Of a DNA stretch of 64,000 bases, positions 51,001-57,000 are shown in pieces. The stretch's first letter is position 1. The number at the start of each line of letters is the position of its first letter. A program made the position numbers. Where the stretch lies: assembly GCF_988242995.1 (NCBI RefSeq), contig NZ_OZ547043.1. One strand, written 5' to 3'.

Positions 51001-54000
51001 GTGGCTAAAATAGCCGCCATTTTTCAGCTACTGGATAAGAAAGTGACCGTATCTTCTCATCGTCTTGAACTGTTAAGTCCGGCACGCGATGCCGCCATTG
51101 CCCGCGAAGCTATTTTGCACGGTGCCGATGCTGTTTATATCGGCGGCCCTGGTTTTGGTGCCCGTCATAATGCCAGTAATAGCCTGAAAGATATTGCCGA
51201 ACTGGTGCCATTTGCCCATCGTTATGGTGCAAAAATTTTCGTCACGCTTAACACCATTTTGCATGATGATGAGCTGGAACCTGCGCAACGGCTGATTACC
51301 GACCTCTACCAGACCGGCGTCGACGCGCTGATTGTTCAGGATATGGGGATTCTGGAACTTGATATTCCGCCGATTGAACTGCACGCCAGTACGCAGTGCG
51401 ACATTCGTACAGTAGAAAAAGCGAAGTTCCTCTCTGATGTTGGCTTCACGCAGATTGTGCTGGCGCGAGAGCTGAATCTTGAGCAGATCCGCGCGATTCA
51501 CCAGGCCACGGACGCGACCATTGAATTCTTTATTCATGGCGCACTGTGCGTGGCCTATTCGGGTCAGTGCTACATTTCTCATGCGCAAACAGGGCGTAGC
51601 GCCAACCGTGGCGATTGCTCGCAGGCGTGCCGTTTGCCATACACATTGAAAGACGATCAGGGGCGGGTGGTTTCCTATGAAAAACATCTGCTGTCGATGA
51701 AAGATAACGATCAGACTGCCAACCTCGGCGCGCTGATTGATGCTGGCGTACGCTCCTTCAAGATTGAAGGGCGTTACAAAGATATGAGCTACGTGAAGAA
51801 TATCACCGCCCATTATCGCCAGATGCTGGATGCCATTATTGAAGAACGTGGCGATCTGACGCGTACTTCATCAGGTCGTACTGAACATTTCTTTGTTCCA
51901 TCGACGGAAAAGACTTTCCACCGTGGTAGCACAGATTATTTTGTGAATGCCCGTAAAGGCGATATTGGCGCGTTCGATTCGCCGAAATTTATCGGCCTGC
52001 CGGTGGGTGAAGTATTGAAAGTGGCGAAAGATCATCTCGATGTTGCCGTCACCGAACCACTGGCAAATGGCGATGGCCTGAACGTGATGATTAAACGTGA
52101 AGTCGTCGGCTTTCGTGCCAATACGGTCGAGAAAACCGGAGAAAATCAGTACCGCGTCTGGCCCAATGAAATGCCAGCAGAGTTGCACAAAATTCGCCCG
52201 CATCACCCACTAAATCGTAATCTTGATCATAACTGGCAGCAGGCACTGACAAAAACATCCAGCGAACGTCGGGTGGCGGTAGATATTGAACTGGGCGGCT
52301 GGCAGGAACAACTGATTCTGACCCTCACCAGTGAAGAGGGTGTCAGCATCACGCATACGCTGGACGGGCATTTCGACGAAGCCAATAACGCCGAAAAAGC
52401 AATGAACAATCTAAAGGATGGTCTGGCAAAACTGGGGCAAACCCTCTATTACGCCCGCGATGTGCAAATTAATTTGCCCGGGGCGCTGTTTGTACCAAAC
52501 AGTCTGTTAAACCAGTTCCGCCGTGAAGCCGCCGACATGCTGGATGCTGCACGTCTTGCCGGTTACCAGCGGGGCAGCCGTAAACCGGTTGCTGATCCTG
52601 CGCCGGTTTATCCGCAAACGCATCTGAGTTTCCTCGCGAACGTATACAACCAGAAAGCGCGTGAATTTTATCATCGCTACGGTGTGCAGCTGATTGACGC
52701 GGCGTATGAGGCACATGAAGAGAAGGGCGAAGTCCCGGTGATGATCACTAAGCATTGTCTGCGCTTTGCCTTCAATCTGTGCCCGAAACAGGCGAAAGGC
52801 AATATCAAAAGCTGGAAGGCGACGCCAATGCAACTGGTTAACGGCGATGAAGTATTAACGCTAAAGTTCGATTGTCGCCCATGTGAGATGCACGTCATCG
52901 GCAAAATTAAAAATCACATTCTGAAAATGCCGTTACCGGGAAGTGTTGTCGCCTCCGTAAGTCCGGATGAGCTGCTGAAAACATTGCCGAAGCGAAAAGG
53001 GTAAAACGCCAGTTTTCTGGTTACTCACAACTTATTGAATCTGCATGATATTGTTGGCCGGGTAAGGCGTCACGCCGCATCCGGCAATAAATGACTCAAC
53101 GTTGTCCCGCTTCTGGTTTGCGCGATTTTTGCCAGTAAAAATGCTCGCGCAAACCTTCCGCCGACTCTTCCGCCACAGCACGCAATTCATCGCTGTCCGC
53201 TTCATGACGCAGTTGATGATCCACATTCTTTACCCACATAAATTCATGTCCTTTGTGCCCTGCCATGAGTTGTCCTGAGAACAGCGCACACGTTAATAAG
53301 ACAACCGATAACGCCTTCGTAAACATCCTGCCACCTTTTTCTTACCTTTTGCCGCTATGATGCCGATCGTTTCTTGAGGTTATTATTCAGTTTTGCAAAT
53401 TAGCGCAAAGAAATTCTGGAATCTTCCTTCCTGATTTTGCATTGCATTCTGCCGTTGCGGCGATTTAGTGCTATTTTCGAGCACATTACACACGGAGGTA
53501 AACACTAATGTTTACTTTGTTGATATACTCAGCGGCAGGGAGGCGATGTGAAACAAAGCGAGTTCAGACGTTGGCTCGAATCTCAGGGCGTCGATGTAGC
53601 GAATGGCAGCAACCATTTAAAACTCAGGTTTCACGGGAGGCGCAGTGTCATGCCGCGTCACCCCTGCGATGAGATTAAAGAACCATTGCGTAAAGCAATC
53701 CTGAAACAACTCGGTTTGAGTTAATCGCCAATTAAAAAGGTTAATGACATGCGAGAGACAGTCGAAATTATGCGTTATCCCGTCACTCTTACACCCGCGC
53801 CGGAAGGCGGTTATATGGTTTCTTTTGTGGATATCCCTGAAGCGTTGACGCAGGGCGAAACTGTCGCTGAAGCGATGGAAGCGGCAAAAGATGCTTTACT
53901 GACCGCATTTGATTTTTATTTTGAAGATAACGAGCTTATCCCTTTACCTTCGCCATTAAATAGTCACGATCACTTTATTGAAGTGCCTTTGAGCGTCGCC

Positions 54001-57000
54001 TCTAAGGTATTGCTGTTAAATGCTTTTTTACAGTCAGACATCACTCAGCAAGAATTAGCCAGGCGAATTGGCAAACCTAAACAGGAAATTACTCGCTTAT
54101 TTAACTTGCACCATGCGACAAAAATCGACGCCGTCCAGCTTGCGGCTAAGGCGCTTGGCAAAGAGTTATCGCTGGTGATGGTTTGATAACAGTTAATGAA
54201 AAGTTGTCATTTTTAACAACTGATATAGACTGCCGAATCACCTGCACATAATAACGATTCGATAATGAAAAAATACCAGCAGCTTGCAGAACAATTACGC
54301 GAGCAGATTGCGTCGGGTATCTGGCAACCCGGAGATCGTTTGCCTTCGTTGCGTGACCAGGTGGCGCTTTCTGGCATGAGCTTTATGACTGTCAGCCATG
54401 CCTATCAGTTGCTCGAAAGTCAGGGATATATTATCGCGCGACCGCAGTCGGGTTATTACGTTGCGCCACAGGCAATAAAAATGCCGAAAGCGCCAGTCAT
54501 TTCAGTCACACGAGATGAAGCAGTCGATATCAACACCTATATTTTTGATATGTTGCAGGCCAGTCGTGATCCGTCGGTAGTTCCGTTTGCCTCGGCCTTT
54601 CCCGACCCGCGACTTTTCCCCCTCCAACAACTAAACCGCTCGCTGGCGCAGGTAAGCAAAACCGCCACGGCGATGAGCGTGATTGAAAACTTACCGCCAG
54701 GAAACGCAGAACTGCGTCAGGCTATTGCTCGTCGCTATGCCTTACAGGGCATCACTATTTCTCCTGATGAAATTGTCATTACCGCCGGGGCGTTAGAGGC
54801 ATTAAACCTCAGTTTACAAGCGGTAACGGAACCAGGCGATTGGGTGATAGTAGAGAATCCTTGTTTCTACGGCGCGTTGCAGGCGCTGGAGCGGTTACGG
54901 CTGAAGGCGTTATCGGTGGCGACGGATGTTAAAGAAGGGATCGATCTTCAGGCGCTGGAACTGGCGTTGCAGGAGTATCCGGTGAAAGCGTGCTGGCTGA
55001 TGACTAATAGCCAGAATCCACTCGGATTTACCTTAACGCCGCAAAAAAAAGCACAACTGGTGGCGTTGCTCAATCAGTACAACGTAACGCTGATTGAAGA
55101 TGACGTGTACAGCGAACTTTATTTTGGACGGGAAAAACCGCTGCCTGCGAAAGCGTGGGATCGCCACGATGGTGTTTTGCATTGCTCTTCGTTTTCGAAA
55201 TGTCTGGTGCCTGGTTTTCGTATTGGTTGGGTCGCCGCCGGAAAACATGCACGTAAAATTCAACGATTGCAGTTGATGAGTACGCTTTCCACCAGCTCAC
55301 CGATGCAGCTTGCGCTGGTGGATTACCTTTCCACGCGCCGATACGACGCCCATCTTCGTCGCCTGCGTCGCCAGCTTGCGGAACGTAAACAACGTGCCTG
55401 GCAGGCACTGCTGCGTTATCTGCCTGCGGAAGTGAAAATTCATCATAATGACAGCGGTTATTTTCTCTGGCTGGAACTCCCCGCGCCGTTAGATGCGGGC
55501 GAATTAAGCCTGGCGGCACTGACGCATCATATCAGTATTGCGCCGGGTAAAATGTTTTCTACCGGTGAAAACTGGTCACGTTTTTTTCGTTTTAATACCG
55601 CGTGGCAGTGGGGAGAACGTGAAGAACAGGCGGTAAAACAATTAGGCAAATTTATTCAAGAACGGCTGTAATAGCGTTTAATTAAATTCCTCTCAGGTTG
55701 GGTAATATGAATTTCGAATAGCAGTCATATTTCCTAACTCCTTGTCTATACTCCAGAAGATAACCTTACAGACGGCATAATGCGCGGTAGCTCACAACCT
55801 GATTAAATTTTCTCAGGGGCGAAGGTGTGCCTGCAAGCCGCCGTCTATGGTTAAACAAGGAGATATTTTTACGGCACGGCGGCTGAACAATTAATTACGA
55901 CAGGAGTAAGACCTTATGAGCAAGACATTTGCCCGCAGCAGCCTGTGTGCGCTCACCATGACAATAATCACCGCTCATGCCGCCGAACCGCCTACCAATT
56001 TAGATAAACCGGAAGGGCGACTGGATATTATCGCCTGGCCGGGATACATCGAACGCGGACAAACTGATAAACAATACGACTGGGTAACGCAATTCGAAAA
56101 AGAGACAGGCTGCGCGGTGAATGTGAAAACCGCCGCGACTTCCGATGAAATGGTCAGTCTGATGACCAAAGGGGGTTACGATCTGGTTACAGCATCCGGC
56201 GATGCCTCGCTGCGCCTGATTATGGGCAAACGCGTGCAGCCGATTAATACCGCATTGATTCCCAACTGGAAAACGCTCGATCCGCGCGTGGTTAAAGGCG
56301 ACTGGTTTAACGTTAGTGGCAAAGTTTATGGCACACCCTACCAATGGGGGCCGAACCTGTTGATGTACAACACTAAAACCTTCCCGACGCCGCCGGATAG
56401 CTGGCAAGTGGTCTTTGTTGAGCAGAATCTGCCGGACGGCAAGAGCAATAAAGGCCGCGTACAGGCCTATGATGGCCCTATCTACATTGCGGACGCTGCG
56501 TTGTTCGTTAAAGCCACTCAGCCGCAGTTGGGCATCAGCGATCCGTATCAACTCACCGAAGAACAGTACCAGGCGGTGCTGAAAGTGCTGCGCGATCAAC
56601 ACAGTTTGATCCATCGCTACTGGCATGACACGACCGTGCAAATGAGCGATTTCAAAAACGAGGGTGTGGTTGCTTCCAGTGCCTGGCCCTATCAGGCCAA
56701 CGCCCTGAAAGCCGAAGGCCAGCCTGTCGCTACCGTTTTCCCGAAAGAGGGCGTTACCGGTTGGGCTGACACCACCATGCTACATAGCGAAGCGAAACAT
56801 CCGGTTTGCGCCTACAAATGGATGAACTGGTCATTAACGCCAAAAGTGCAGGGCGATGTGGCGGCCTGGTTTGGCTCGTTACCAGTAGTGCCGGAAGGGT
56901 GTAAAGCCAGTCCGTTATTAGGCGAGAAAGGTTGTGAAACAAACGGTTTTAACTATTTCGATAAAATCGCCTTCTGGAAAACGCCTATAGCAGAAGGGGG

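Follow-up and report, generated by a model that had tools for sequence, protein, structure and literature searches.

Positions 53548-54186 of the window, the 64-kb stretch of DNA that was analysed as a whole, almost certainly hold an intact copy of the chromosomal hicAB type II toxin–antitoxin operon of Escherichia coli, with yncJ and ydcR on either side as is usual for this locus. The operon itself is already known and well studied in E. coli: its structures have been solved and its regulation mapped. Here we established the gene structure, the identity of the proteins and the families to which they belong, the synteny, and the near-identity of the promoter region to that of K-12; activity, neutralization and regulation are taken from the literature on the K-12 proteins, of which HicA is identical to the protein encoded here, and we infer the positions of the promoter P2 and of the operator. 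The genes and the ribosome-binding site of the toxin gene are as follows.

53548-53724, plus strand: hicA, a GTG-initiated ORF of 58 amino acids encoding an mRNA interferase toxin, with the catalytic His23 present.
53538-53543, plus strand: the hicA Shine–Dalgarno sequence GGGAGG, read from the sequence, 4 nt upstream of the GTG and identical in K-12.
53770-54186, plus strand: hicB, encoding an antitoxin and repressor of 138 amino acids that has a HicA-binding domain at its N terminus and an HTH-XRE domain at its C terminus; the start given is the one used in RefSeq and K-12.

Upstream of hicA, the nearest in-frame stop is the TGA at 53521-53523, and the first start codon thereafter is the GTG at 53548. 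Because the next in-frame methionine, residue 35, already lies beyond the catalytic His23, this GTG is the sole start that gives a complete HicA. The resulting protein is identical to the crystallized E. coli K-12 toxin (PDB 6HPB chain A; 58/58 residues, 100%) and, at 58 amino acids and with that same sequence, falls among small single-domain proteins (50–100 amino acids) with a dsRBD-like fold. Residue 23 is a histidine, matching the conserved catalytic histidine of the family. K-12 b4532 and hicA of strain N3 encode the same sequence, with a GTG start in all cases. The Pfam profile HicA_toxin (PF07927, COG1724) matched with 30.9 bits against a gathering cut-off of 27, over residues 5-57 and profile positions 3-58 of 58.

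HicB scored 32.8 bits (cut-off 27) against HicB_lk_antitox (PF15919, COG1598/4226) in its N-terminal domain and 32.7 bits (cut-off 23) against HTH_3 in its C-terminal DNA-binding domain, at residues 94-141 when counted in a 145-aa form of the protein discussed below. It matches PDB 6HPB chain B at 137 of 138 residues, with E90D as the sole change against K-12, N3 and AMSHJX01; this substitution is conservative. The Pfam scores of both proteins are only modestly above the cut-offs, which is expected of domains this short. A scan of both proteins with NCBIfam HMMs gave no match at E≤0.01, and since RefSeq nevertheless names the genes hicA and hicB, those names have some other source than an NCBIfam HMM matching here. 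The NCBIfam null does not refute the assignments, for which the Pfam matches and PDB identity are decisive. As HicA is identical, and HicB near-identical, to experimentally characterized proteins, the pattern is not due to chance.

The sequence-only reading had placed a hicAB pair at 53548-54186, with a 58-aa, GTG-started hicA, and had proposed a profile-HMM search as a check. The ORF, the PDB identity and the RefSeq annotation, which places both genes at identical coordinates, all agree with that placement, and the search supported it through the three Pfam families, all above their cut-offs, with NCBIfam giving no match. In RefSeq, hicA and hicB also have these starts, and yncJ and ydcR as neighbours, in strain N3 and K-12 MG1655 (b4532/b1438), and thousands of further E. 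coli genomes are annotated with the same two genes, starts and flanking genes. The discovery value is small, and the case serves mainly as calibration: a GTG-initiated gene of fewer than 60 codons was correctly recognized from raw sequence.

The toxin gene comes first and lies on the same strand as hicB, 45 nt separating its stop codon from the ATG at 53770, as in the hicAB operon arrangement; the spacing of 45 bp that had been read from the sequence is exact with this start. The reading frame is, however, open from a further in-frame ATG at 53749, which would give a HicB of 145 amino acids and a gap to hicA of 24 nt. This ATG is preceded at 8 nt by an AAGG and the ATG at 53770 at 11 nt by a GAGAGA, and PDB 6U0I was built from the 145-aa protein, to which the long form here is identical at 144 of 145 residues. 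RefSeq and K-12 (NP_415955.2) nonetheless use the 138-aa start, and the 138-aa protein folds and binds HicA in 6HPB. The HicB Pfam domain begins only at residue 10 of the 145-aa form, and for most distant plasmid homologues the alignment starts only at its residues 6-10, which favours the shorter protein. Translation from 53749 is thus possible but rather unlikely, and we retain the ATG at 53770.

The 221-nt promoter region differs from that of K-12 at a single base (position 53484), so the two-promoter regulation described for hicAB (PMC8138530; 10.1101/330480) very probably applies here too, to judge by this comparison. In that scheme a CRP-S promoter, P1, lies upstream of P2 (PMC8138530; 10.1101/330480). 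Three elements upstream of hicA are relevant.

53327-53497, plus strand: upstream part of the yncJ–hicA intergenic region, expected to hold the CRP–Sxy-dependent promoter P1; putative.
53498-53515, no strand assigned: inverted repeat GTAAACA-N4-TGTTTAC, found by repeat search; candidate HicB operator (hicO).
53521-53529, plus strand: TGATATACT, candidate extended -10 element of P2, read by eye.

The best CRP-S/CRP core matches upstream of hicA, at 53392-53409 and 53475-53490, agree at 6 of 10 positions. Across the 64-kb window, TGCGA-N6-TCGCA with up to three mismatches occurred 274 times against about 306 expected and was not enriched; this search did not locate the P1 site. A transcript from the candidate P2 -10 element would start about 7 nt downstream, at the hicA ribosome-binding site, and the inverted repeat, which is unchanged in K-12, would lie over the -35 region of this candidate promoter as a candidate hicO. 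When the intergenic sequence was shuffled, an equivalent repeat arose in about 10% of cases, so that the repeat is not significant by itself as evidence for an operator and is listed as a candidate only. A generic scan for σ70 promoters and terminators returned no promoter upstream of hicA, including at the candidate -10, and no terminator after hicB.

Expression of K-12 HicA, which has the same sequence as the protein here, arrests growth; the toxin has a ribosome-independent RNase activity and cleaves ompA, dksA and rpoD mRNAs and tmRNA, and its His23 is conserved (PMC11594946). HicB covers this histidine (PMC8138530). In the mechanism that we carry over from K-12 to this locus, free HicA, a 58-aa endoribonuclease with an RNA-binding fold and the catalytic His23, would cut mRNAs and tmRNA whether or not they are being translated, and would halt growth. 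The N-terminal domain of HicB would bind HicA and cover His23, with dimerization through the C-terminal HTH domain giving a HicA2–HicB2 complex. HicB would repress P2, the promoter nearer to hicA, and would be released from its operator by an excess of HicA; the ensuing P2 transcript, beginning at the hicA ribosome-binding site, would yield HicB only and restore the excess of antitoxin. The distal promoter P1, dependent on CRP and Sxy, would supply both proteins.

Among 5,426 complete E. coli genomes, the intact form of hicAB is kept in only about 58%. A 445-bp deletion that removes hicA is present in 1,093 of them, and a 22-bp frameshift deletion within hicA, which leaves hicB intact, in 811. 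The 445-bp deletion starts at 53503, inside the inverted repeat at 53498-53515. In many strains hicA has been lost independently of its neighbours.

Since some 35% of the complete E. coli genomes have one of these two inactivating deletions at hicAB, the locus in the window might be an inactive remnant instead of a working toxin–antitoxin pair. The window has neither the 445-bp nor the 22-bp deletion, however; neither ORF is truncated, the HicA sequence is that of the active K-12 toxin, HicB carries a single conservative change and the promoter region is intact, all of which makes a remnant hardly credible. The window holds two further toxin loci.

37573-37722, minus strand: hokB, intact (HOK_GEF, 83 bits), with an adjoining Rfam sok-family match.
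61652-61825, plus strand: ortT, intact (Toxin_GhoT_OrtT, 97 bits).

All three loci are real, as had been claimed from the sequence, and they are intact; the accompanying claim of an unusual density of toxin genes in the window overstates the case, the density being weak evidence and expected by chance genome-wide. In simulation, one random 64-kb window held at least three toxin loci with a probability of about 0.014-0.04, which would by itself lend some weight to reading hokB/sokB, hicAB and ortT (37.6-61.8 kb) as a selected toxin or defence island and not as chance neighbours. This window, however, comes from a genome-wide scan: a genome with 36-55 toxin loci should contain one to three such windows, E. 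coli K-12 having at least 39 toxin–antitoxin systems (PMC7438911), and 39-81% of simulated random genomes had three loci within 24.3 kb at some place. The gene context likewise argues against an island. The loci belong to unrelated families (a type I system, a type II system and an orphan GhoT-like toxin) and lie 8-16 kb apart, with core metabolic and transport genes between them (among these trg, opgD, tehAB, rlhA, ydcSTUV and patD); no integrase or tRNA marks a boundary, related genomes are without mobility genes at the boundaries, and in many strains the loss of hicA is independent of its neighbours. We therefore rejected the island on the simulation and the gene context, and consider it very improbable. 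Nor should the remark on toxin density count in favour of the unexplained cassette at 31.3-32.9 kb, which is a separate matter. A joint reading would take the hicB-sparing deletion as a sign of a selected role of HicB on its own, with the intact allele kept in a balanced polymorphism, and, separately, hokB, hicAB and ortT as co-selected. We regard it as improbable; if true, HicB might act in its own right, for example as a transcription factor or an anti-addiction module, and the intact allele would not be a neutral relic.

The intact operon that we favour is closest to E. coli K-12 hicAB (b4532/b1438; PDB 6HPB, 6HPC and 6U0I), with which it shares position, GTG start, 45-nt spacer and HicA sequence, and from which it differs by E90D in HicB and 11 synonymous codon changes in the pair. 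Two of these are in hicA, which has no non-synonymous difference, and nine are in hicB, mostly in its 3' half; hicB also has the one non-synonymous change. As the codon differences are nearly all synonymous, they point to purifying selection. HicB here and in K-12 has an HTH-XRE domain (Pfam HTH_3) and forms a heterotetramer (PMC11594946), unlike the HicB proteins of Yersinia pestis HicAB3, Burkholderia pseudomallei HicAB and Streptococcus pneumoniae HicAB, which carry a ribbon–helix–helix domain and form hexamers or octamers. Haemophilus influenzae toxTA resembles hicAB, as the latter is described in the literature, in its toxin-first operon, its CRP-S promoter (CRP plus Sxy) and an internal promoter, repressed by the antitoxin, from which only antitoxin is made, whereas the two are without sequence homology, ToxT belonging to the RelE/ParE family and not to the HicA family (10.1101/330480). 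Natural deletions in toxTA often take out the toxin while sparing the antitoxin (10.1101/330480), and the hicA deletions of E. coli show the same pattern.

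The locus at 53548-54186 is the E. coli hicAB operon proper, beyond mere membership of the family. A 1-kb query spanning it matched 5,415 of 5,426 complete E. coli genomes, and the annotated features beneath these matches were hicA, hicB, yncJ and ydcR. The genes and the toxin's ribosome-binding site are as follows.

53548..53724, plus strand: hicA, open reading frame with GTG start, 58 aa, protein sequence MKQSEFRRWLESQGVDVANGSNHLKLRFHGRRSVMPRHPCDEIKEPLRKAILKQLGLS
53538-53543, plus strand: hicA Shine-Dalgarno GGGAGG, read from the sequence
53770 or 53749 to 54186, plus strand: hicB, open reading frame from ATG 53770 (138 aa, 45-nt spacer) or ATG 53749 (145 aa, 24-nt spacer)

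The GTG-initiated hicA proposed in the sequence-only reading was borne out. Because the frame is open upstream only as far as a TGA at 53521-53523, GTG 53548 is the earliest possible start; it is also the sole start yielding the whole protein, since the next in-frame Met (residue 35) falls beyond the catalytic His23. K-12 hicA (b4532) likewise starts with GTG. A minimal ATG TGA start-stop frame (53546-53551), also present in K-12, shares one base with this GTG and lies in the +2 register relative to hicA.

The HicA and HicB assignments passed a profile-HMM check in Pfam, with HicA_toxin at 30.9 bits (cut-off 27) for the 58-aa protein, and HicB_lk_antitox at 32.8 bits (cut-off 27) and HTH_3 at 32.7 bits (cut-off 23) for the downstream protein; neither protein matched any NCBIfam model. 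HicA is identical (58/58) to chain A of the K-12 structure 6HPB, 'mRNA interferase toxin HicA', and HicB is identical to chain B of 6HPB/6HPC at 137 of 138 residues and to 6U0I at 144 of 145. The single change is E90D (138-aa numbering), where Glu stands in K-12, in strain N3 (the nearest genome in the database) and in strain AMSHJX01. Relative to K-12, hicA has no non-synonymous and two synonymous codon differences and hicB one and nine, a pattern that would be expected under purifying selection. All family-defining features open to testing in the sequence are present.

The proposed 45-bp spacer is exact with the RefSeq start of hicB, equivalent to 53770 in both N3 and K-12 MG1655 (b1438). 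A start at ATG 53749 would give the 145-aa form, which we consider unlikely: alignments with plasmid-borne distant HicB homologues (30-49% identity; hosts include Aeromonas, Arsenophonus, Piscirickettsia, Pseudomonas and others) for the most part begin at residues 6-10 of that form, the Pfam domain begins at its residue 10, and the HicB crystallised in complex with HicA is the 138-aa protein. For these reasons we favour 53770.

The window had also been described as unusually dense in toxin genes, on the strength of hicAB and two further loci.

37573..37722, minus strand: hokB, 49 aa, HOK_GEF 83 bits, with an overlapping mokB frame
37717-37868, minus strand: sok-family RNA beside hokB, Rfam match, 109.7 bits
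37094-37157, minus strand: RydC sRNA, 92.5 bits, flanking hokB together with the sok match
61652..61825, plus strand: ortT, 57 aa, Toxin_GhoT_OrtT 97 bits

Both hokB and ortT are real and intact, so the three loci stand, but the density was over-read. Rfam places the sok match on the hokB strand, presumably reflecting coverage of the hok leader region by the model. Annotation of syntenic E. coli genomes gave no further named toxin in the window. Together the three loci span 24.3 kb, with the core genes trg, ydcI, hglS, opgD, rimL, tehAB, ydcO, sutR, rlhA, ydcR, ydcSTUV and patD between them. K-12 carries at least 39 TA systems (PMC7438911). When 36-55 loci were placed at random in 4.64 Mb, the probability of three or more in one random 64-kb window was 0.014-0.042, with 1.0-3.0 such windows expected among about 72 non-overlapping ones; some triple fell within 64 kb in 95-100% of simulated genomes and within 24.3 kb in 39-81%. 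Since simulated triples are this common, the clustering is what a genome-wide scan would yield by chance, and we treat it as coincidence. That the three loci form a functional island is highly improbable, as they are of unrelated types and a search for island boundaries found none.

Other features of the window concern insertion sequences and ancestry.

1627-1750, minus strand: IS200-type copy, Rfam STnc490 match
30570-30693, plus strand: IS200-type copy, Rfam STnc490 match
44217-44340, plus strand: IS200-type copy, Rfam STnc490 match
30652-31161, plus strand: open reading frame with a Pfam Y1_Tnp match
31444-32769, plus strand: three consecutive open reading frames (130, 152 and 125 aa), directly 3' of an IS200 copy

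The STnc490 matches score 145-146 bits, and K-12 and N3 lack these copies at the corresponding sites; an IS200/IS605 transposase lies near ydcH in related strains such as SCU-109. The three consecutive frames, previously singled out as an unexplained cassette, gave no Pfam match and no sign of a toxin locus; SCU-109 carries the same genes between hrpA and ydcF, annotated 'hypothetical protein'. Identity to the window in strains 746, CE2050 and MS14384 is 99.8% over 20-38 kb (20001-38000) but only 98.9% over 39-64 kb (39001-64000), and around hicAB no complete genome exceeds 99.0%, which suggests either that the ancestry is mosaic through recombination or that the source lineage is absent from the complete-genome set.

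Published descriptions of K-12 hicAB give two promoters: a distal P1 with a CRP-S site, activated by Sxy and expressing both genes, and a proximal P2 that HicB represses and excess HicA de-represses. The yncJ-hicA intergenic region (53327-53547) differs from K-12 by one base, at 53484, and holds two candidate elements.

53521-53529, plus strand: candidate extended -10 element of P2, TGATATACT, inferred from sequence
53498-53515, no strand assigned: candidate HicB operator, perfect inverted repeat GTAAACA-N4-TGTTTAC, from a repeat search

This -10 element would set the transcript start at about 53535-53538, at the hicA Shine-Dalgarno, a prediction in keeping with published accounts of P2. The inverted repeat overlaps the candidate P2 -35 region and may be the operator; shuffling the region produces an equivalent repeat about 10% of the time, so the repeat alone is weak evidence. 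A CRP-S site could not be placed upstream of hicA, where the best matches reach only 6 of 10 core positions, and matches of this kind show no enrichment across the window. Downstream, the hicB-ydcR spacer (54187-54264) has no terminator-like site; transcription of hicB may run on towards ydcR, or the spacer may be a ydcR promoter and operator. Within it lie a short inverted repeat, AGTTGT-N8-ACAACT, and, at 54204-54231, a sequence resembling a promoter, TTGTCA-16-TAGACT.

Alignment of representatives together with RefSeq annotation revealed two recurrent hicAB decay alleles in E. coli, both inactivating hicA.

Equivalent to 53503-53947: 445-bp deletion that takes out the candidate operator and P2 together with the whole of hicA and the first 59 hicB codons
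53665-53686, inside hicA: 22-bp deletion that shifts the toxin's reading frame while hicB stays intact, as in AMSHJX01

The larger deletion leaves an annotated hicB pseudogene lacking its N-terminus, as in APEC O1:K1:H7 E16002. Using 80-nt junction probes (E<=1e-25) on 5,426 complete E. coli genomes, we found the 445-bp deletion in 1,093, the 22-bp deletion in 811 and the undeleted form, as in the window, in 3,145, with 377 left unclassified by the probes. These alleles are context rather than discovery: earlier work has reported that type II TA systems are unevenly spread over the E. coli phylogroups, a review finds no TA system common to MG1655, W, EDL933 and UTI89 (PMC7167474), and in Haemophilus influenzae hicAB and toxTA the toxin is often lost and the antitoxin kept (10.1101/330480).

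The hicAB operon is itself already known. When expressed ectopically, HicA is bacteriostatic, inhibits translation and causes ompA, dksA and rpoD mRNAs and tmRNA to be cleaved, with His23 as the conserved catalytic residue (PMC11594946); HicB, a fully folded antitoxin, covers His23 (PMC8138530), and the two form a HicA2-HicB2 heterotetramer held via C-terminal HTH domains (PMC11594946). The activity and regulation to be expected here are those documented for an identical HicA and for a HicB differing by one conservative residue.
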